Positions 589-58,999 of a DNA stretch of 64,000 nt are shown in pieces. A program made the translations under genes and the position numbers. How positions within the stretch are numbered: the first letter of the stretch is position 1; each line of letters opens with the position of its first letter. This DNA is from a virus, in the UHGV virus genome UHGV-0141727. One strand, 5' to 3'. The notes beneath the pieces are model-generated. The model did no database searches. It was not told where the DNA came from and worked only from the letters and a program-made list of their open reading frames with translations.

Positions 589-781
589 AACTTTCTCTTT
601 TCTCAAATAAATAACGCAAACCAATAATAACTAGTGTTATCATTAACTTAGCGCAACTTAACTTTTCTGTTAGATAATACATTGAATAAAGTTAAAGATG
701 AATGCCGTTTAATAATGTTTGGTGTAATAGAAATCACATTCTCAACATAGTTATTGCTCTTTTTTCATTCGGAGCATGATT

Positions 782-2754: not shown

Positions 2755-2787
2755 TGATTAGAAACATCAATTTAATTTTCTAACACA
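2755..2787. promoter_or_regulatory. operator-like inverted repeat ATTAGAAA-N12-TTTCTAAC upstream of immunity-like module 1
   Basis: member of recurring TGTTAGAAAA/TTTTCTAACA motif family seen at 7 sites. Confidence 0.4.
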
Positions 2788-2842
2788 CAATTACGAGCGA
2801 TGATTTTTCCGCCGCACGGTTATTGTACAGTCAATCGCAACA

Positions 2843-3896: not shown

Positions 3897-4000
3897 GCAG
3901 TCGCTACCGGAGCAGTGACCGCGATCCTACTCGATCACGTGCCGTCGGATCAACAGTGTATAAAAACACACTGTGTTAGAAAATTAAGCTAGCTTTTAGC

Positions 4001-4999
4001 TCACATCCTCTTAGACACAAAGATCAGCGGAGTCACCGTCTTGTTCTCTTTCACCGGTATTTCTTGTTGTTTATTGGCTGATATTGGCAGACCATAAGTG
4101 GCATTAGCCCCTAGGGATTCAAGCATCGCTGCGACAATGCGTGCATCATCCTCTGACTGCATACGGCAGAGCGCCCGGCGCTGTTCTGCGCTGATAAAAA
4201 CAGGCATTTCCTGGATAGCATCACGCAAAATACGGCGGCATTTCTTCGCGTTCTCCCCCTGGCTTTCCATCATCGCGGCCTGGTCGCGTAGTTTGTCGCG
4301 AAGCTGCATATTTTCCACTTCAAGATGTATCAGTTCCGATTCCAGAGCTTCACGCTGTGCTGATTCAATCATTGCTTGTTGACTTTGCATTTGTGCAAAG
4401 TGATGAACAATATCTGTAGCCTGATTGTCAGTGAAACCTTGATCCATCAGCGACGTGTGCATAACAGCTTCACGCTCTTCAACGGACTCCATCATCGGTA
4501 TCTGTTTATCGAGGCTGATATAGTTCGGCACGGTAACGTAATCAAATCCATGAAAGGAGTTTACTATTGACACGAAAGAATCAGGTCCAATAGTCGCCCA
4601 TGACCAACCGCCAGCATTTGAGTTGATCAATCCTTGAACAATATGCCCTGTATATGAATCAAGAATTTCTTGGGTGTGCGTAATGACACCATTATCGTCA
4701 ATAGAAATATCAACTGTTCTGTTAGATGGCACATTTTCCAGAAGAAGAGGCTTACCATCCATCATAACAACGCAAACCTCTGGCAAATCTAGTGATTTAG
4801 TTTTGTTGTAATACATCGAGCGGCGACCATGACCGTAATATCCAAATAGCTCACCAAGAGCCATGCGCTCTTTAACTAGCGGTGATGTTATGGTTTTTCG
4901 CACAGCCTCAATAATGTATTTTCGGTTGTTCTGCGGTGTATGTTTGCGGATTTTCTCTACCAGGGAGAAGCGATCCGTAACGGTATTCAGTGATTGCAT
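4001..4999 (-). CDS. head morphogenesis protein (prohead protease/scaffold-like by size and position)
   Basis: ORF 332 aa immediately downstream of portal-size gene; coiled-coil C-terminal half. Confidence 0.3.
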   Translation of the reverse strand: MQSLNTVTDRFSLVEKIRKHTPQNNRKYIIEAVRKTITSPLVKERMALGELFGYYGHGRRSMYYNKTKSLDLPEVCVVMMDGKPLLLENVPSNRTVDISIDDNGVITHTQEILDSYTGHIVQGLINSNAGGWSWATIGPDSFVSIVNSFHGFDYVTVPNYISLDKQIPMMESVEEREAVMHTSLMDQGFTDNQATDIVHHFAQMQSQQAMIESAQREALESELIHLEVENMQLRDKLRDQAAMMESQGENAKKCRRILRDAIQEMPVFISAEQRRALCRMQSEDDARIVAAMLESLGANATYGLPISANKQQEIPVKENKTVTPLIFVSKRM

Positions 5000-9536: not shown

Positions 9537-11482
9537 ACGCCCCCTTGTTGTATCTCTGCCAAAATGTTGATCAGGTGATCGGCTGCCGCACCAACAAGTG
9601 ACTCGTTCTCATCATATCGACCTGCGTTGATAAGAACATTAGCTGCCTCCTGAATGCGATCAAACTCCGCTCTAATCACCGTCAAATCACGGGACGTAAA
9701 CTGCAACGGCACGGATTTCAGATATTCCAGCGCACTGTCCGCCTCCTGATCAGCCTCACTAACGACTGGCCCATCTGAACCTGTATCAGACTCTTGGGGG
9801 GATTCAGGTTCAGACTCAGGTACTGGTACTGGTACTGCTTCCGGTGCCTGATCTAATGTCTGTTCAGCTTCGACTACTTCTGATTGATTCTGAAGCGCGT
9901 CATAGATATCCATTATAAAAAGGTTCTCCCCATCTCCAAGTGGATAAGCGACGTTAGGAAATGCTTTGCGGAAGAGGATTTTTATCTGCGCCTTAAAGGT
10001 TTTCAAGTCGCTTCCAAACAGATCAACATAGCCATCAATATGGTTCGACATACTGGACGCAACCAATTCGCCTGCAATCTCTTTCAATTCATCGTCACCA
10101 GGGAGATATAGCAACTCGTACTGACTGACTTCTTCGTCTGTCAGTTTGCGGTCATACGTAATGATTCCGTGACGAGCATATTCGTAATACGGATCAGCCT
10201 GATCAGGACGGTCAAGTACAGCTTTATTTCCTTCAGGAACCGCACCAACACCCGCCGGGCGAGATTGGAGCGCATAGCGATATTTACCAACCTCCAGGGG
10301 ATCAGGATGTGATTCTGGTTGTGGCTCCTGTTCAGGCTGCGGCTGATCAGTTGGCTCAGGCTGGCCCGGCAACACATCCACTTTGTATTGATCAGCATTA
10401 TGTTCACGATAGGCTTTAAGTAATTTGGTTGCAGCGTCCGCTGAACTCCCACCTTTAACAGCACTGACATCAATACTGAAATTGCCTTCTGGTGCCTCAA
10501 TCGTGACAAAGCTATCACTGCCTGACGTGACATACTTAACTACAGCACCATTATCCAGCGTTGTTTGGCCTTCTGTAGCAAGATTATGTTTTATGTGTCG
10601 CAGTTGATCATTGAAGGCACGCTCTTTAGTTCCTTGGCTCTTAGCTGACAATAAATTATCGCGTTTAGCCTGCAATTCCGCGTTAAGGGCTTTTTGTGCG
10701 TCTAATTTATTCTGCATATCATTGAGTGTTGAGCGTTTCTCTGCCAGCCCCCGCTGTGCGTCTTCAACCTGCTCAATCAGCACAGAACGTTCTTCTGCCA
10801 GCTTGTCGGCTTCATTGAGATACCCCTCAATATCAGCCTTCATTTTGTCTTGGCGCTCCTTTGCTTTTTTGAATTTTGCACTATTACGCTCAATGAGGTT
10901 AGAAAGCGCCTGGCATACCTGGCTCAGAGATACATCACGCCCACCGATTGGCGCAACAACATGCGTAACGTTTCTTTTGTTAAGAAGAAACTGAAACGCA
11001 ACCAGCTCGTCATCCCCTTTAATTCTTGTGCCGTCTGCGGTTGGAGAATGGAAAATTATGCTTGTCGTTTGCCCATCGGTTAGAGGTATTTGTGCTGTTA
11101 CAACAGGGATATTAGCAACCCGGCGCACGCGCCCAATGATTGCCCCACCGATACTATTACGTCCGTCTTCATATTCACCTGCCTCATCCGTACCCGCAGC
11201 AATGTCAGTGCCATTCAGGCCGCGATTAAGCGCCCGGACAAATGCTCGCATTGTTTGCGCTAACCGCAATTTTGTTGTGGTTATAGCTTCGAACATTGCC
11301 TCATTGGTAGTTACCAAAATTTCGTTGCCCATATAGGCCAGCTCGATATCTTCCAGCGTCGCAGGCTCGATAAGTAAATCATCCTCGGTGATATCTTCCG
11401 CCACCCAACGATTAGGCGTATATCCAGTGAGCGTATCTGCAAAAGTGGACTGGATATTTATTCGAATAGGTTTCTTTATCAT
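9530..11482 (-). CDS. large internal head/antirestriction-type protein, P1 DarA-like by size and synteny
   Basis: ORF 650 aa with central coiled coil and acidic Pro/Glu-rich linkers; follows LydA/LydB/Hdf-like genes as in the P1 darA operon. Confidence 0.35.
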   Translation of the reverse strand: MIKKPIRINIQSTFADTLTGYTPNRWVAEDITEDDLLIEPATLEDIELAYMGNEILVTTNEAMFEAITTTKLRLAQTMRAFVRALNRGLNGTDIAAGTDEAGEYEDGRNSIGGAIIGRVRRVANIPVVTAQIPLTDGQTTSIIFHSPTADGTRIKGDDELVAFQFLLNKRNVTHVVAPIGGRDVSLSQVCQALSNLIERNSAKFKKAKERQDKMKADIEGYLNEADKLAEERSVLIEQVEDAQRGLAEKRSTLNDMQNKLDAQKALNAELQAKRDNLLSAKSQGTKERAFNDQLRHIKHNLATEGQTTLDNGAVVKYVTSGSDSFVTIEAPEGNFSIDVSAVKGGSSADAATKLLKAYREHNADQYKVDVLPGQPEPTDQPQPEQEPQPESHPDPLEVGKYRYALQSRPAGVGAVPEGNKAVLDRPDQADPYYEYARHGIITYDRKLTDEEVSQYELLYLPGDDELKEIAGELVASSMSNHIDGYVDLFGSDLKTFKAQIKILFRKAFPNVAYPLGDGENLFIMDIYDALQNQSEVVEAEQTLDQAPEAVPVPVPESEPESPQESDTGSDGPVVSEADQEADSALEYLKSVPLQFTSRDLTVIRAEFDRIQEAANVLINAGRYDENESLVGAAADHLINILAEIQQGGVW

Positions 11483-32124: not shown

Positions 32125-32240
32125 TTACTTCTTTTTGGGTGTTTTTCGTGTCTTTGAAGTGCTCGCGGCGATAGTTTCACCTTCGTTTACTTCAATTGCC
32201 GTTGGTGAAACTGACACGTTCGCCACTGCTACTTTTTTTC
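32125..32240 (-). other. candidate programmed -1 frameshift site (A AAA AAG at 32232-32238) and 35-codon extension carrying the start of an Ig-like domain
   Basis: slippery heptamer overlaps the stop codon of the 565-aa gene; 9-bp stem 32173-32181/32203-32211 downstream; -1 frame reads VAVANVSVSPTAIEVNEGET... Confidence 0.4.
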
Positions 32241-33926
32241 GTTGATTTGCCCGCTCAACATGTCAATCGCACCTTCTTTCGAACGTGTCAGGCGAAGGCG
32301 AGTGAAATAGTTCTCACCGTTGCGCGGATGCACATCGTTGATTGCTTTGCCCCAAAAAGTGGTGCGGTTCACTAGGGCTGGATTTGTTTCGTGGACATAC
32401 GGAATAGCAGGCACAGCATCACCTGCGACCAGGCCTGCTTTACCAATGCCTTCGCCACGACCATAGAAATAGATGTCGTCCAGGCCGAAGTCGTAGCCAT
32501 ATTTCTGGAATTGTTTGCAGATAGGCTTCGGCACTTCGTAGATACGAATGGAACCAAACAGGGTGCCGATGTATTGAATGTACGGCGACTGTACATAGCC
32601 CGGTGCCAACTGGAAGTGCTGCGGCGGTAAGGAACGCAGGAAGTTAGCAGCATCGCCACCAGCAAAGCCACCACGGATACCGGTGGTCAGGGTGCGGTCA
32701 GCCATCTCCTGTGACAGCGCGTTCACAACATGGCGAATTAAACCAACCCACGACTCGTAGTTCTGCGCTTCTGGCAGTGCCACATCAAATTCACGACCGT
32801 AAACGGTGTGGAATACCAGAGTGCGCAGGCGCATCATATCGATTTCGTGGGAAATCCAGTTGCGCATTGCAGAGAATTGCAATGCTGCCAGTTCGAGTCC
32901 GTGTTCACGGCTCAGGTCAGATGCAGCCATAACCGTATGTTCGGATGCGATCACGTACTCCGACGGGCGCAGGGCGTAATTGCGCATGGACTGGTTAATG
33001 ACTGGTATCAGGTTCGGATTGCGTTCAATGTTGATTTCAACCTGAACAGCGATTTCAGTGCCTTCTGCTGGTGCTTCATTAAAGGTGATATCGATAACGC
33101 CGGTATCGTATCGAACCTTTGCCGTCACAGAGAAAGAGTTGCCGTTGACGTCTTTGTCGTTGAAATACAGGTTGCCGTCACCATCATCTACTTTGGACGG
33201 TTTGCGGTTAATCAGCAGTTTGTTGTAGCCCTGGCGCAGCGGGCAGGCCTGGCCTTCGAAGTTCTGGATATCAAACTGGAAGGTGGTTTTTCTGCCATCG
33301 CCTTTTTCGGTCAGGATGTACAGGCGTTTCATCTGCGAATACACGCCAGCAGACTGCATGTTCAGTTCATCGCCCTGCTCGAATGTACCGAATTTTGTAC
33401 CAGCAACGTTGGTCAGCTCGTAAATATTGGTTTCATCACGATCACAAGGGATAAACGTACATGCGTCGCTGGTGGCTGCGCCGAGAGAAGCAGGCAGGAT
33501 CAGTGCGGCATATTGTGCAACCTTCATTACACCATCGGAGGTGCGCATGTCCTTGGCTACTGATTCAAACATGGCTTTGCCAGCGCCTTCATGCGTCTCT
33601 TTAGCGGACTCCATCATCAGGCGCTCAAGTGCCACATGGGCGTTGGCTAATACATCGCTTGCCGGATAATGCCCATACTGGCGTTTGTATTCATGAATAG
33701 ACATGGCCCAGCTACCAATGATCTGGCGAGCTGCTTCTGGTTCAACGCCTTCAAACATAGGCTCTTTCTGGATAGCTTTTTCCAGGTTAGCCATCATCAC
33801 TTCGTTGTCGGCAATCATGTTACCGGCAGCATCAGTGGTTGGATCGACGGTCATAGCCATGACGCTTGCCGCCCGATTCATAATCTCGCGCTCGCGCTTA
33901 CGAGCTGGCTCAATGTTCTTGTTCAC
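32229..33926 (-). CDS. major capsid-size structural protein (P1 gp23-like position)
   Basis: ORF 565 aa; ends GAA AAA AAG TAG; Ig-like domain sequence downstream. Confidence 0.4.
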   Translation of the reverse strand: MNKNIEPARKREREIMNRAASVMAMTVDPTTDAAGNMIADNEVMMANLEKAIQKEPMFEGVEPEAARQIIGSWAMSIHEYKRQYGHYPASDVLANAHVALERLMMESAKETHEGAGKAMFESVAKDMRTSDGVMKVAQYAALILPASLGAATSDACTFIPCDRDETNIYELTNVAGTKFGTFEQGDELNMQSAGVYSQMKRLYILTEKGDGRKTTFQFDIQNFEGQACPLRQGYNKLLINRKPSKVDDGDGNLYFNDKDVNGNSFSVTAKVRYDTGVIDITFNEAPAEGTEIAVQVEINIERNPNLIPVINQSMRNYALRPSEYVIASEHTVMAASDLSREHGLELAALQFSAMRNWISHEIDMMRLRTLVFHTVYGREFDVALPEAQNYESWVGLIRHVVNALSQEMADRTLTTGIRGGFAGGDAANFLRSLPPQHFQLAPGYVQSPYIQYIGTLFGSIRIYEVPKPICKQFQKYGYDFGLDDIYFYGRGEGIGKAGLVAGDAVPAIPYVHETNPALVNRTTFWGKAINDVHPRNGENYFTRLRLTRSKEGAIDMLSGQINEKK

Positions 33927-34036
33927 GGTTAAACCCTAAATTCGGGCGCGGCGTGAAGATTCTTTTGACGAGGTGACAATACTCACTTTGTTATTTAGTC
34001 AATAGCATTAGAAAAATAATTTTCGTTAACAATCTT

Positions 34037-34084
34037 GTGTTAGTATGGTTTAATCTTAATTTTCTAACATAAAACATTAGAACA
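34037..34084. promoter_or_regulatory. operator-like site with TGTTAG/TTTTCTAACA/CATTAGAACA half-sites
   Basis: recurring motif family, directly upstream of plus-strand gene 34085. Confidence 0.4.
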
Positions 34085-34477
34085 ATGGCGTACAAGATCT
34101 TCGTTTCATACAAAAATGGTGCTAAAAGCCATTCTCTGAACACAAGCAGCAGATGCCTTGTAGAAGCTCAACTGTCATCAATCCTTACTGAAAGAGACAT
34201 TCTTTCCTTGGCTGAACGAATCGTGATTCTCCATTCAGGTAAGGCTATTCTTAATGTTCCTGCGCTTACCCCGCCTTCTGACGTTTTGGCATCTGTTAAG
34301 TGGCCTCAAATCGGCACACCTGTAAGAGTGGAAGATCCTGTAACCACCACTCTTTATATGCCGAAGTCAGTAAGGGATTGGCTTGCTGCGGTTGGTAATG
34401 GGAAGGTCAGCGCGGGGCTTCGGAAGTTAGTGGAAATGGCTGATATTCCGGAGCTGAAAAATGCATGGAGACAGTGA
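34085..34477 (+). CDS. hypothetical protein with C-terminal ribbon-helix-helix-like segment
   Basis: ORF 130 aa on opposite strand to virion genes; C-terminus TTLYMPKSVRDWLAAVGNGKVSAGLRKLVEMA. Confidence 0.35.
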   Translation: MAYKIFVSYKNGAKSHSLNTSSRCLVEAQLSSILTERDILSLAERIVILHSGKAILNVPALTPPSDVLASVKWPQIGTPVRVEDPVTTTLYMPKSVRDWLAAVGNGKVSAGLRKLVEMADIPELKNAWRQ

Positions 34478-34488
34478 GCAGAGGACAC

Positions 34489-34947
34489 ATGAGTCACGCG
34501 AACCCATCGAAAACACAATATCGTTTAATGCTGGCTATCGCGTCAGCTATACCAACCAGCCTGAATCCACCCGCTGGCTATCCCGCTATTGTTGATGATT
34601 GTTTTCAGTATTACGGAGAAGACATCCTGAGCCAGTCCAAAGCGCTCAAGCAGTTATGTAAGGCAGGTATTCTTCACTGTATCGGAGATCCGGACGATTT
34701 TGTTGTTATGCTGGCGGATCGTGACTCTTTTCTGCTGTCATGGAAAGCCGGGGCGCGCGAAGCGCGTTTGGGCAATGGTATTGGCTACATCGACTATAGC
34801 GATTGTCCGCTGGCATTTGCTGGTGGATATATGCATTGGCATGAGCGAAATAGAGGCCGTCAGCGCCAGTATCGCTTGAGTGACTTTAACGTCTGTCACG
34901 GTTTCGAAGAAGCTGACAGCCAGGACATCTGGCTTCAGGAGCCTTAA
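34489..34947 (+). CDS. hypothetical protein
   Basis: ORF 34465..34947; ATG 34489 with AGAGGA RBS immediately after upstream stop. Confidence 0.35.
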   Translation: MSHANPSKTQYRLMLAIASAIPTSLNPPAGYPAIVDDCFQYYGEDILSQSKALKQLCKAGILHCIGDPDDFVVMLADRDSFLLSWKAGAREARLGNGIGYIDYSDCPLAFAGGYMHWHERNRGRQRQYRLSDFNVCHGFEEADSQDIWLQEP

Positions 34948-35267
34948 CCCCCCTTCCCTTCCCAAATCTCCCTATTCCTTTGGTTATTCAGTACGTTTCG
35001 TTGGTTGCATTCATCGATAGTGCTGAATAACTGTTCAGTGTATGCCGGATACTTGTTTAACAGCACAGGCGTGTCCTCTGGCACTATGCAAGGGGTATAA
35101 TCAATCAGATTTCCCTGCGGTTTGCTGGTGGCTTCTACGGTAATTTGCATTGGCACGCTGATTGATTTCTTTTGCCCGTTCCCGCTGCATCCTGATAACG
35201 TCATCAGGCACACGCACATCATTAACCCCAGCATTGCGTAAAGCAGTTTCAAGACGAGTAATTTCAT
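34944..35267 (-). CDS. outer-membrane spanin (o-spanin, lipoprotein)
   Basis: 107-aa ORF with lipobox LSGC; overlaps the i-spanin gene in another frame. Confidence 0.55.
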   Translation of the reverse strand: MKLLVLKLLYAMLGLMMCVCLMTLSGCSGNGQKKSISVPMQITVEATSKPQGNLIDYTPCIVPEDTPVLLNKYPAYTEQLFSTIDECNQRNVLNNQRNREIWEGKGG

Positions 35268-35559
35268 TCTGGCTTTCCTCCCGTTGTTTGATCAGGCTGG
35301 TATTCAGTTCTGCTGTTTTGCGCTGGTACTCCTTCTCCAGTGTTTTAATTCTTTCGTTTTCAGCCATCATGGCAGATCGCGATTTTTCACTTAACTGCAA
35401 TGCGGTAGAAAGCGTGTTGTTCTCGCTTTCAAGTTGTGATTTTGAGTCTTCCAGGGAACGGATATACCTGATGTGATCGATAACTGCCGCCGTAGTACGG
35501 TAAATTCCATAAATGGCTAAAAGCGCAACTACTATCAAAATTATCTTTTTCAAAACCAT
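35101..35559 (-). CDS. inner-membrane spanin (i-spanin, Rz-like)
   Basis: 152-aa ORF with N-terminal TM segment and coiled-coil periplasmic domain. Confidence 0.55.
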   Translation of the reverse strand: MVLKKIILIVVALLAIYGIYRTTAAVIDHIRYIRSLEDSKSQLESENNTLSTALQLSEKSRSAMMAENERIKTLEKEYQRKTAELNTSLIKQREESQNEITRLETALRNAGVNDVRVPDDVIRMQRERAKEINQRANANYRRSHQQTAGKSD

Positions 35560-35629
35560 CCTCTTCAGATTTTTTGTTGGTGTGATATGTGTACCAATTT
35601 GTAACCATTTATGGGCTTAAATGGTGTGG

Positions 35630-36424
35630 TTATGGTTCCTTTTTAGTGTTGCTTTGGAGCGCATCGATTACACCTTGTGGCATGATCAAACTGATTGCCG
35701 GACTCATTACTTCATCGCCCAGTAGAGAACCGGTTAACGTAATAGCTACAGCATTTTCCAGTCCCTGTTTGGCTTTTCCGGTAGAGTCCTTAACTTGCTG
35801 TGCAAGTGTTGAGAGACTACTGCTCGTGTTGTTTATTGCATTTATTTGTTCTGTTGCTGCTTCCACAGCGTCTTTTAGTGCTTTGATCTCTTCTTCTGTT
35901 AGTGCTGGTTGCTGTGTTGTTCCGGTGGAACTTCCGTTGCCTGAAGCCTCCTCGCTTGACGCCTGAACTTTTGCATTTATAGCGGTCATAGCTGAAGTGA
36001 TTGGCACCAGTTCAAATGCTGCCAACGCGTCAATAAGCGATTGCGGATGCAGGGTATCTCCCATAACTGTTACGAGAGCAAATTCTGGCGCAGGAGATAA
36101 CTCATTACCTTTGACGTAACATTCCCAGCCAATTTTCATCTGAAGTAATTCAGTTGGCGAAGTATACGGAGACAGCGAGTCGGCTAAATGGGTTGCTTCT
36201 GCACTGACAGTTTTCAGTTGTTCTGAAAAGACAGAAAGCTGATTGACCCATGAAACCACCGACGCCGGGTATGCTTTATCCTTCAGGATAAGAGCCTGGA
36301 TATTCTCTTCCAGAGAACTGGCATTGGATGACGCTGTTTTACTTAGCGTGATAGATGCAGGCGTAGTTGTGCCTGATGCATTTAGAATTTTGAATGCGTT
36401 AACTTCAGCGATTGAATCAAGCAT
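35630..36424 (-). CDS. Ala/Ser/Thr-rich hypothetical protein downstream of PAAR gene
   Basis: ORF 264 aa. Confidence 0.3.
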   Translation of the reverse strand: MLDSIAEVNAFKILNASGTTTPASITLSKTASSNASSLEENIQALILKDKAYPASVVSWVNQLSVFSEQLKTVSAEATHLADSLSPYTSPTELLQMKIGWECYVKGNELSPAPEFALVTVMGDTLHPQSLIDALAAFELVPITSAMTAINAKVQASSEEASGNGSSTGTTQQPALTEEEIKALKDAVEAATEQINAINNTSSSLSTLAQQVKDSTGKAKQGLENAVAITLTGSLLGDEVMSPAISLIMPQGVIDALQSNTKKEP

Positions 36425-36708: not shown

Positions 36709-36777
36709 CTAACACCTCCTTTTTCTTAAATCTTCTCCACTTTGTGATTTTCACTCTTCAGATTTCTTACTTCTCAT

Positions 36778-36957
36778 ATTTGTCTCTGATTTGTCTCAAA
36801 AGGGTATCATTGGTACATCATGTATCATCTAAGTCTCTTTTGTGTCTCTTTTGTGTCTCTAGTTTGATGCTTTTTACGCTATCTAACTTCTGGTCTTATT
36901 TTGTTTTCTCATATAAAATTCAATTCTTTCTCAAATGTGTCTCAGAAGTGGAGCAAT
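36778..36957. repeat. parC-like centromere/promoter repeats (TTTGTCTC and TTTTGTGTCTC units)
   Basis: at least five copies of TGTCTC-containing unit upstream of parM. Confidence 0.5.
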
Positions 36958-37917
36958 ATGATGCGCATTTTTATCGACGATGGTTCTACCAATATCAAAA
37001 TGCTGTGGGAACAAGACGGGGAAACTCGAACCCATATCTGTCCGAACAGTTTTAAACGTGGATGGTCCGCCACATTTGGCGCAGGAAAGCCGTTTAACTA
37101 CATCATTGATGACGAAAAATATTCATATGACTTGATCTCGCCGGATGTGCTGCCGACGAATAACGTTGAATGGCAATACAGCCCGCTTAATGTGCTTGCT
37201 GTTCATCATGCCCTGCTTACAAGTGGCATTGAGCCTCAAGAAGTGGAAATAGTTGTCACGTTGCCACTGGCAGAGTTTTATGACGACGACGCACAATACA
37301 ACATGAAAAATATTGAGCGGAAAAAGGCCAGCCTGATGCGACCAGTCACCCTTAACAAAGGTCAGGTTTTTACTATCAAAAAAGTGACTGTGCGCCCGGA
37401 GTCAATACCCGCAGGGATCGGTCTGTGCGACAGCCTTGTGCCAGCGCATTCTGTGCTTATTGTTGATCTTGGTGGGACTACTCTGGATGTGTCGATGGTC
37501 GCCGGGCAAATGACCGCCGTTTCTCGCGTATTTGGCGATTCTAATCTCGGCGTTTCGCTGGTAACTAAAGAGGTCAGACAGGCACTTGCAAAAGCGAATA
37601 CCGAAACCTCTAATTATAATGTCGATCAATTAATCATTAATCGTGATGATGAGGATTATTTGACCGACAATATTAACGATCCGTCTGCTATTGATGATGT
37701 TAAGAAAGCCATTTCGTCAAGCATAGAACGACTCCGTACACGCGTACTGGATGTGATCAGTGATTTCAAAGGATACACGCATGTTATGGTCATTGGTGGC
37801 GGCGCGCCGCTTGTTGCTGATGCTATCCGTGAGCAGGTAAACATTCGTGACGATAGGTTTTTCGTTGCTGATGATCCACAACTTGCTCTTGTCTATGGTC
37901 TAAAATCTATCGGTTGA
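36958..37917 (+). CDS. parM: actin-like plasmid segregation ATPase ParM (StbA)
   Basis: ORF 36901..37917; ATG 36958 with GGAG RBS; recalled resemblance to R1 ParM in N-terminal blocks (FIDDGSTNIK, ICPNSFKR, VIGGGA) (recalled from memory, not searched). Confidence 0.8.
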   Translation: MMRIFIDDGSTNIKMLWEQDGETRTHICPNSFKRGWSATFGAGKPFNYIIDDEKYSYDLISPDVLPTNNVEWQYSPLNVLAVHHALLTSGIEPQEVEIVVTLPLAEFYDDDAQYNMKNIERKKASLMRPVTLNKGQVFTIKKVTVRPESIPAGIGLCDSLVPAHSVLIVDLGGTTLDVSMVAGQMTAVSRVFGDSNLGVSLVTKEVRQALAKANTETSNYNVDQLIINRDDEDYLTDNINDPSAIDDVKKAISSSIERLRTRVLDVISDFKGYTHVMVIGGGAPLVADAIREQVNIRDDRFFVADDPQLALVYGLKSIG

Positions 37918-42123: not shown

Positions 42124-42165
42124 AAACTGTGTTAGAAAATAAAACTCAATTATCTAACACAGTTT
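42124..42165. promoter_or_regulatory. perfect 13-bp inverted repeat AAACTGTGTTAGA/TCTAACACAGTTT operator-like site upstream of rdgC operon
   Basis: member of TGTTAGAA motif family. Confidence 0.45.
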
Positions 42166-52923: not shown

Positions 52924-53254
52924 TTTGACACCCCCAGCGCGAGTAAAGAATGCAGATTATCGCGTGAGTGGCGGACAACGAGTGATGGGAAAAGACAGTA
53001 GCTGTTCATAGTGTAGTGACTCCTTGCTTTTGGAGCCGCCATCGACTGTTCCACGGTCTGGTGGCGGCGCAATAAAGGTTGGAACACCGTGAGTCAACGG
53101 GGGCTTTTCAGCCACCTATATTGCACCGCCATTGGTATGGCGGCGGCAATCATACGAAAAACCAAACGGTTTGTCTCAAAAAGTTGACCGGTGTACCAAT
53201 CGGTTGTGAATGTACAACGGTGAATTTCACAATTCAACTTAAAATGTTAGAAAA

Positions 53255-53830
53255 CTAATTTATTAATTCAGTCACCATCTGATACAACGTCATTTCATCG
53301 GCATTGTGCCGCCTGAAATCTGCTTTGCCGCCTATTTTTCCATCAGCATGAACAGGGACCAACCAGGGGTATTGCTCGCGTATCTCTGCTGGCGCTGCGT
53401 GTTGATGGTGCCATTTACACAAAGGGAGAACGTATTTATGCGCGTTCTCTGCCGTTCTCCCGAAGATGTGGTGCAGGGATACCACAGGGCTATGCTGTCC
53501 GTGCATATGGCAGGCAATGCAGGGGAGAGCACCGATGGCAGTTTGTATCCGGCGCTCATCTGCTGTGAGCGTTCTGCCTTTCAGGCCACGTGACGTGCGC
53601 GTTTTTTTGACTGGAGCAGAAGCGGCCTTCTCTTTTCTTCGCTGTTCATATTGCTTCGCTTTTTCAATTTTCTTTTGCCGATATTCAGGCGATGCAGCCT
53701 TTTCTCGCGCACGCTGCTGCTGGCGTTGAGCTTGCTGAAGACGCTTTGCCCTTTGTTCCTCCCGCCATTTCGGATCAGCCAGTTTTTTCAGGGCTTTTTG
53801 CGTCTGTTTCTCCCAATAGCTTTGCTTCAT
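53255..53830 (-). CDS. Ref-like HNH-type nuclease (P1 recombination enhancement function-like)
   Basis: ORF 53255..53872; Lys/Arg/Gln-rich N-terminus, C-terminal Cys/His cluster CIACHMHG...HHIFG...PLCKWHH. Confidence 0.45.
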   Translation of the reverse strand: MKQSYWEKQTQKALKKLADPKWREEQRAKRLQQAQRQQQRAREKAASPEYRQKKIEKAKQYEQRRKEKAASAPVKKTRTSRGLKGRTLTADERRIQTAIGALPCIACHMHGQHSPVVSLHHIFGRTAENAHKYVLPLCKWHHQHAAPAEIREQYPWLVPVHADGKIGGKADFRRHNADEMTLYQMVTELIN

Positions 53831-53872
53831 AGAAATACCCGGTTTGTCTACATCGCCGCTATGGTTGATCAA

Positions 53873-53911
53873 ATGTGTTAGAAAATCAAAATTGATTTTC
53901 TAACACAAAAT
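53873..53911. promoter_or_regulatory. near-perfect 34-bp palindrome TGTGTTAGAAAATCAA AA TTGATTTTCTAACACA in divergent promoter region
   Basis: strongest member of the recurring operator-like motif family. Confidence 0.5.
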
Positions 53912-58895: not shown

Positions 58896-58925
58896 TCCTG
58901 AACACATCGTTTATGCACTCAAAAT

Positions 58926-58960
58926 GATGTTAGAATATTGATTTTAATTTTCTAACAGAT
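58926..58960. promoter_or_regulatory. operator-like inverted repeat TGTTAGAA-N14-TTCTAACA upstream of 59000 gene
   Basis: member of recurring motif family. Confidence 0.4.
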
Positions 58961-58999
58961 TATTTTACCGCTCGGAACAAAACAGAGTCGGTATACATT

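Follow-up and report, generated by a model that had tools for sequence, protein, structure and literature searches.

Between the capsid and the spanin genes of a P1-type element, within a late block that is read from the minus strand, lie two small genes of opposite orientation. An earlier note, made from the sequence of this element, had regarded them as an accessory regulatory or defence cassette with an operator of its own. This raises the question under whose control the two genes stand, when they are expressed and whether they form one unit at all.

The locus and its surroundings

The window, i.e. the whole stretch of 64 kb that was analysed, belongs to a D6-like phage-plasmid of the P1 family. 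Phage D6 itself is related to P1 and is carried in plasmid form. Positions 33900–35000 share 85% nucleotide identity with Escherichia phage D6 (MF356679, 54048–55153), and the gene order of the region matches that of D6. There, orf52 and orf53 (D6_52 and D6_53) are direct homologues of the two genes in the same position and orientation, already known and annotated as hypothetical proteins. The major capsid gene, which is of the P1 gene 23 type (D6 orf51), occupies 32229–33926 on the minus strand and is the divergent neighbour of orf52, with a control region of 158 bp common to both. As described before, two open reading frames of 130 and 152 aa were found on the plus strand, the orf52 homologue at 34085–34477 and the orf53 homologue at 34489–34947; a 160-aa reading of orf53 from the ATG at 34465 is likewise open. 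The claimed translational adjacency of the pair could be confirmed. The gap between the genes measures 11 nt and contains, as read from the sequence, the Shine-Dalgarno motif AGAGGA of orf53 (34480–34485, plus strand) ahead of its ATG. In L003, a more distantly related D6-like contig, the second gene starts at a GTG that overlaps the stop codon of the first.

The position opposite to the late genes, from capsid to spanins, was also recovered. Next to orf53 an embedded spanin pair of the Rz/Rz1 type is found on the minus strand, with the o-spanin at 34944–35267 (lipobox LSGC) and the i-spanin at 35101–35559. It is followed in gene order by upfB-like and PAAR/upfC-like genes, also on the minus strand, and a ParM gene is located at 36901–37917 on the plus strand. 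P1 differs at this place in that it has neither orf52 nor orf53; there, gene 23 and mlp/ppfA, the homologues of the spanin genes, are separated by parS-parB-parA-repA-oriR-upfA.

Pairwise dN/dS values of orf52 and orf53 against their homologues range from 0.03 to 0.26, indicating that both are real genes under purifying selection. Homologues occur in about 140 plasmid records per gene. These plasmids are mostly 78–98 kb in size and come mostly from Escherichia and Salmonella, but also from Shigella and other genera.

At their ends the convergent genes meet closely, as the stop codons of orf53 (plus strand) and of the o-spanin gene (minus strand) overlap in the TTAA at 34944–34947. A terminator scan gave no terminator-like site between orf53 and the spanin genes. 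Early transcription would accordingly continue into the lysis genes in antisense orientation; conversely, late transcription would read through orf53 and orf52 as antisense. A search of 33000–36000 against Rfam found nothing.

Operator and predicted promoter upstream of orf52

In the earlier note, the control region had been described as an operator with three TTAGAA half-sites. The hexamers are indeed present at 34008 (plus strand), 34062 (minus strand, reading TTCTAA) and 34077 (plus strand), but as a set of three they do not exceed chance: when the spacer, which is AT-rich and 158 bp long, is dinucleotide-shuffled, 68% of the shuffles contain at least three copies of some hexamer, counted with its reverse complement. 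AAGATT, too, is present three times in the spacer. Neither copy 1 nor copy 3 is conserved in D6, the E. fergusonii plasmid or L003. Copy 3 occupies the ribosome-binding position, where L003 has the Shine-Dalgarno sequence GAGGTG. The three-half-site operator was dropped on both grounds, leaving the middle copy TTTTCTAACA (34060–34069) as the sole invariant one. The first hexamer belongs to a weak operator-like sequence, AATTATTTTTCTAATGCTATTG, at 34000–34021 on the minus strand, which abuts the −35-like TTGACT on the capsid side. With 11.8 bits it ranks 13th in the window under the operator position weight matrix (PWM, see below) and is not conserved in D6, L019 or L003; the site is probably non-functional.

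The middle copy has relatives throughout the element. With at most one mismatch, TTTTCTAACA gave 17 hits in the window compared to 5.4 expected, a number that was reached in 0 of 100 shuffles, and 11 of these sites carry the longer consensus AATTAATTTTCTAACAC. The orf52 site is a monovalent copy, TCTTAATTTTCTAACATAAAAC, at 34054–34075 on the plus strand. The ten further copies comprise four single sites at 662–683 (minus), 2770–2791 (plus), 3968–3989 (minus) and 53239–53260 (minus), and three divergent pairs spaced by exactly 20 bp (42130/42150, 53876/53896 and 58928/58948), which span 42124–42145 (minus) and 42144–42165 (plus), 53870–53891 (minus) and 53890–53911 (plus), and 58922–58943 (minus) and 58942–58963 (plus). 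The family is thus one of asymmetric sites of about 17 bp with a TCTAA core, of which numerous copies are scattered over the window, in part as pairs. Similar asymmetric TCTAA-core operators, dispersed as single and paired copies, are found at the C1 operons of P1 (Oref/ref, Odmt/uhr-hrdC-dmt, Op53/kilA-repL and Olpa/lpa).

A PWM was trained on the ten other window sites, leaving out the orf52 site. Under this matrix the orf52 site scored 22.5 bits and came 10th among some 128,000 positions, compared to 14.6 bits for the best site outside the family. The homologous sites scored 20.0 bits in D6 (54202, upstream of orf52), 30.2 in L019 and 19.5 in L003, and the core TTTTCTAACA is invariant in D6, L003, L004 and L019. 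By motif, score and conservation, the site at 34054–34075 is shown to belong to a phage-wide family of C1-type operators; the idea of a private operator for an RHH-like protein had to be abandoned. The best non-family site mentioned above, ATTTTGTTTTCTCATATAAAAT at 36898–36919, is a near-palindrome at the annotated parM start and may belong to the parC/ParR control region instead of the C1 regulon.

The genes next to the sites point in the same direction. Window sites lie upstream of repL, icd/antirepressor, hrdC-dmt, ref (on both sides) and a pdcB-like gene, and the same PWM located D6 sites at 193, upstream of c1, and at 4626, upstream of lpa. In P1, repL, lpa and c1 are under C1 control. 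The C1 operators annotated in the P1 record are Oref, Omat and Odmt, belonging to ref, to mat and to the dmt operon, respectively. The operators of the window and of D6 are accordingly found at orthologous genes that C1 controls in P1 (repL, hrdC-dmt and ref, with c1 and lpa in D6), and one copy overlaps the predicted promoter of orf52-orf53. With the ten further AATTAATTTTCTAACAC copies, the presumed C1 regulon of the element can be mapped. The P1 operator ATTGCTCTAAT has the TCTAA core in common with the window family, whereas the flanks differ, AATTTTCTAACAC in the window versus ATTGCTCTAATAAATTT in P1. From the motif family, the orthologous positions and the analogy to P1 we infer that C1 binds the window type, including the site at 34054–34075. 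A C1-like prophage repressor is annotated as orf1 of D6; the window does not include the matching part of the present element. The consensus of the P1 operators yielded one lone site with up to four mismatches in the window and was discarded, as was CATTAGAA, considered as another phage-wide motif, for its eight hits compared to 2.3 expected have no common context.

A promoter for the pair was recognised by eye. It is a predicted sigma-70 promoter of the extended −10 type on the plus strand, with the −35 element TTAACA (34026–34031), a 17-nt spacer, TG (34046–34047) and the −10 element TTTAAT (34049–34054), implying a transcription start at about 34061. Despite substitutions, D6 (TTAACA-17-TGaTTTAAT) and the E. 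fergusonii plasmid (TTCACA-17-TGtTTTAAT) have retained this geometry, compared to TGgTTTAAT in the window; L003 shows TTGAAA-18-TATGAT. In total, three lineages conserve the promoter layout. A consensus promoter scan found no promoter for the operon, since the scan accepts only A as the second base of the −10 element. A search for the late-promoter box of P1, AAGTNACTT, combined with a −10 element gave no convincing site upstream of orf52 or orf53. The last base of the predicted −10 element is also the first of the operator (34054–34075), which lies 10 bp before the ATG. The operator covers the predicted start, so that repression by occlusion is the natural reading.

As the operator family sits at genes that P1 controls via C1, the pair is most likely a C1-repressed early operon, composed of genes with independent histories. 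We give this reading a probability of roughly 65%; our confidence in any biochemical role for Orf52 or Orf53 is much lower. The homologue of D6 orf52-orf53 would then be a bicistronic early operon, transcribed divergently from the capsid gene by a predicted host-type promoter, the start site of which is covered by a single asymmetric copy of the C1-repressor operator. C1 would keep the operon off in the plasmid-prophage state, and induction or infection would turn it on along with ref, hrdC-dmt, repL and lpa. Orf52 would head a slot that the lineages fill with differing cargo genes, and Orf53, a mobile, acidic early protein, would be one such cargo. The two genes probably have independent roles, and Orf53 might, speculatively, act via protein or nucleic-acid interactions in the early takeover. 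Membership in the C1-type operator family argues for repression in the prophage and expression early in lytic growth, and not for a superinfection, defence or stability function expressed by the prophage. Some C1-controlled operons of P1 are leaky in lysogens, and orf52-orf53 may for this reason also be expressed in the prophage.

This reading changes the expected timing, as the products of the pair would act early in lytic growth and not in the carried plasmid state. It also provides AATTAATTTTCTAACAC as a usable operator consensus for D6-type phage-plasmids, which are common in E. coli and Salmonella. The additions to what is known, namely the placement in the C1 regulon, the picture of a cargo slot and the fold descriptions given below, are modest: this is ordinary phage regulation, applied to two uncharacterised families.

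An alternative close to the earlier proposal is that Orf52 is an RHH autorepressor acting on the three TTAGAA half-sites and forms, together with Orf53, a regulatory or defence module that is expressed by the prophage. The extended 12-nt direct and inverted repeats of the spacer (11/12 each), in which the hexamers lie and which occur together in only 0.7% of shuffles, and the basic character of Orf52 (pI 9.6) are in accordance with it. The frequency of hexamer triples in shuffled spacers argues against this module, and so does the conserved copy, being a member of the C1-type operator family. Moreover, the putative DNA-reading strand of Orf52 is conserved, which does not hold for copies 1 and 3. 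Together with the lack of a PADLOC match and the evolutionary uncoupling of the two genes, described below, these points make such a module unlikely.

For the C1-repressed operon, further information comes from a Citrobacter lineage. There, the spacer between orf52 and the capsid gene contains only a candidate operator of 15.8 bits with one core mismatch and in opposite orientation, which counts against the C1-operon reading. The enriched intergenic motif of the Citrobacter phage-plasmid is a different one, TTAATTCTAAGG, with 13 sites in 45 kb. In the Citrobacter freundii plasmid NZ_CP114569, sites of the form TTAATTCTAAGG(C/T) were located at 9838, 20366, 23422, 23602, 29750, 31260, 34478, 36019, 36090, 44160 and 44270, among others. 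They include positions upstream of ref and of rdgC and in the spacer between cre and a 344-aa ORF, a possible c1 homologue. For the C1-regulon picture this support is suggestive only. The motif TTAATTCTAAGG(C/T) contains the TCTAA core common to the P1 and D6 operator types, which points to a joint diversification of repressor and operator specificity within the P1 supergroup. With AATTAATTTTCTAACAC and the Citrobacter motif TTAATTCTAAGG, the early regulon of such elements should be readable straight from their sequence.

Separate histories of orf52 and orf53

Homologues of Orf52 are always encoded divergently from the capsid gene, with a spacer of about 160–180 bp. This arrangement was found in D6-like elements and in plasmids of Citrobacter, Pantoea, Xenorhabdus and Leclercia. 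What follows orf52 differs between the lineages: orf53 in Escherichia, Salmonella and E. fergusonii, several small ORFs and a DUF262 gene in Citrobacter, nothing in Pantoea, NinX together with RelE/ParE, NadS and HicB genes in Xenorhabdus, and umuDC in Leclercia. The locus after orf52 can thus be flagged as a slot for cargo exchange. In the Leclercia plasmid NZ_CP042508 (L020, 1405–3384) the orf52-like gene is directly followed by umuD and a Y-family polymerase gene, and by gene content the slot can hold SOS-type cargo. Orf53 in turn occurs without Orf52, on the one hand in the early region of Vibrio phage douglas 12A4, which contains rdgC, and on the other hand in the cre-c8-ref early region of other P1-like elements, beside cre, a c8-like gene or ref.

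The two genes also differ in their distance to D6. Between the window and D6, dS amounts to 1.84–1.87 for the capsid gene and orf52 and to 0.22–0.26 for orf53 and the i-spanin gene, and the nucleotide identity jumps from 66–84% to 91–99% at about 34494. The shift in identity and dS places a recombination (mosaic) boundary between a capsid-orf52 block and an orf53-spanin block at 34478–34500. In comparison to D6, orf52 of the window thus lies in a diverged block (dS about 1.85), whereas orf53 is nearly identical. Further downstream, the identity to D6 falls far below that of the flanks at 35750–36330, the body of the upfB-like gene (41–60%), and at 36730–36890, the spacer upstream of parM (31–54%). 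By this identity profile both are further mosaic joints. The upfB-like proteins of the window and D6 are just 59.5% identical.

Since each gene occurs alone elsewhere and a breakpoint lies at their junction, an obligate pair of the toxin-antitoxin kind can be ruled out; the obligate pairing of type II systems was not observed here. A type II toxin-antitoxin or addiction function, with Orf52 as RHH antitoxin and Orf53 as a toxin of another kind, would suit a short operon of two genes, the first of which encodes a putative DNA-binding protein, at a locus where P1 has its plasmid-maintenance genes. This explanation is nevertheless largely refuted and hardly probable any more: besides the breakpoint between the genes and their solitary occurrence in many elements, the RHH-like part of Orf52 is C-terminal and not N-terminal, and neither protein matched a toxin or antitoxin family. 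That other lineages carry toxin-antitoxin, DUF262 or umuDC genes in this variable slot would also suit the prophage-expressed module discussed above. In total, an operator-controlled accessory unit on the opposite strand stands as had been proposed, but not its description as one cassette, and not the suggestion of defence, as PADLOC gave no match.

The strict linkage of Orf52 to the capsid gene would be accounted for if Orf52 were a dedicated regulator, or a translational or morphogenetic helper, of the capsid gene and the late operon, with Orf53 being incidental. The divergent layout with its spacer of about 160–180 bp extends from Escherichia to Xenorhabdus while everything downstream varies, and orf52 has the history of the capsid gene (dS about 1.85). 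Further, conservation within the spacer is highest towards the capsid gene, where a hairpin sequesters the Shine-Dalgarno sequence and the start codon. However, the linkage may be plain vertical synteny, P1 expresses gene 23 from LP23 without having orf52, and the surroundings of the capsid promoter showed no conserved repeat suited to an RHH dimer. We regard a role of this kind as improbable and prefer the C1-repressed early operon also with respect to Orf52.

The leader of the capsid mRNA deserves a description of its own. It corresponds to 33918–33975 on the minus strand and shows 88–94% identity to D6, the highest within the spacer. In its hairpin, which is kept in five lineages, GCCC pairs with the Shine-Dalgarno-like AGGG/GGGC, and in the outer stem UUCAC pairs with the GUG start region, with one compensatory pair (UA to CG). 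The hairpin may serve in translational control of the capsid gene.

The two proteins

Searches with the whole Orf52 and Orf53 proteins against Pfam, NCBIfam, PADLOC and the PDB sequences gave no match, and nothing was found with their isolated domains in Pfam, NCBIfam and PHROGs at E values up to 10. In PHROGs the proteins fall in families 7830 and 8101, neither of which has an assigned function. Conserved virion components, the outcome that had been named as speaking against an accessory module, were not encountered: these two families are the sole matches, and no virion family was hit in PHROGs, Pfam or NCBIfam. In PADLOC zero defence families matched either protein at E values up to 1.

Orf52 (130 aa) shares 80% protein identity with D6 orf52. 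The AF2 model (pLDDT 84.5) shows a beta-beta-alpha-alpha-beta-beta-alpha domain at residues 1–70, a linker of lower confidence and two helices at 94–103 and 108–119. The C-terminal part, about 85–119, begins with an extended segment (85–92) before the helices; a strand is not formed in the AF2 monomer model. Conserved are a P-V-x-x-x-L-Y-M-P stretch and the loop G104-x-G106-x-x-S109, whose G104, G106 and S109 are invariant in the D6-like members. Ribbon-helix-helix (RHH) domains of the CopG/Arc/MetJ kind have a strand-helix-helix topology of about 45 residues with a G-x-S/T/N cap in front of the second helix. Similar to ParG, omega and some HicB antitoxins, which carry a C-terminal RHH, Orf52 is a small basic protein with a separate N-terminal domain, and it shares with such regulators the order of extended segment, 10-residue helix, G-x-G-x-x-S loop and 12-residue helix. 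The RHH-like C-terminus that had been noticed in the sequence is thus compatible with the modelled topology and the G-x-x-S loop, but profiles do not back it: no RHH profile was matched in Pfam (E values up to 10, with 12 C-terminal fragments), in PHROGs or in a PDB profile search. Topology and invariant loop also agree with the autorepressor discussed above.

The likeliest role of Orf52, at somewhat less than even odds, is that of a DNA-binding local regulator of the shared control region. Quite unlikely are the further-reaching ideas that Orf53 defines a new family of phage-plasmid early proteins, in which a winged-helix-like domain is fused to an RMF-like hairpin, and, separately, that Orf52 is a capsid-linked gatekeeper of the RHH type, opening a conserved slot for the exchange of accessory genes between lineages. 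Two possible relatives of Orf52 were rejected on comparison, the UpfA protein of P1, which also has 130 aa and occupies the same slot, and the product of the gene that precedes the Orf53 homologue in Vibrio phage douglas.

Orf53 (152 aa, pI 5.4) is 98.7% identical to D6 orf53 and belongs to a rare family with 23 representatives among 1.84 billion proteins. Its AF2 model is confident (pLDDT 93.6) and consists of a winged-helix-like domain at residues 8–75 and an RMF-like helical hairpin with a C-H-G-F tail at 78–152, both with weak fold-match scores. As a winged helix we regarded an a1-b1-a2-a3-b2-b3 topology together with a fold match to wHTH proteins. A fold search against BFVD gave no hit at E ≤0.001; a phage RMF was among the weak hits. 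Sequence profiles (Pfam, NCBIfam, PDB, hhalign) confirmed neither the winged-helix nor the RMF relation, and homology to E. coli RMF was rejected by hhalign. RMF is a strongly basic protein. In contrast, the hairpin domain of Orf53 is acidic (pI 5.5), has no sequence-profile link to RMF, is fused to the winged-helix-like domain and bears an extra tail with the invariant C-H-G. Neither the sequence nor the basic rRNA-binding character of the RMF family was thus found in the C-terminal domain. The acidic charge argues against direct binding of DNA or an RMF-like binding of rRNA. Invariant residues of Orf53 include H116 and C136-H137-G138. Homology to P1 C8 was rejected on comparison, and a 1256-aa match to the Orf53 profile (P0048) turned out to be a repetitive artefact.

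Under the quite unlikely reading of a new family, the target of Orf53 might be host translation, via ribosome hibernation, or else the machinery of RecA and recombination, given its repeated location near ref or rdgC. Outside the D6-like elements, genes of the Orf53 family were found within a few kb of the gene for Ref, a RecA-dependent nuclease, or for RdgC, downstream of cre (loci L002, L005, L006, L011–L014 and L016–L018). This proximity may merely reflect the conserved cre-ref early region.
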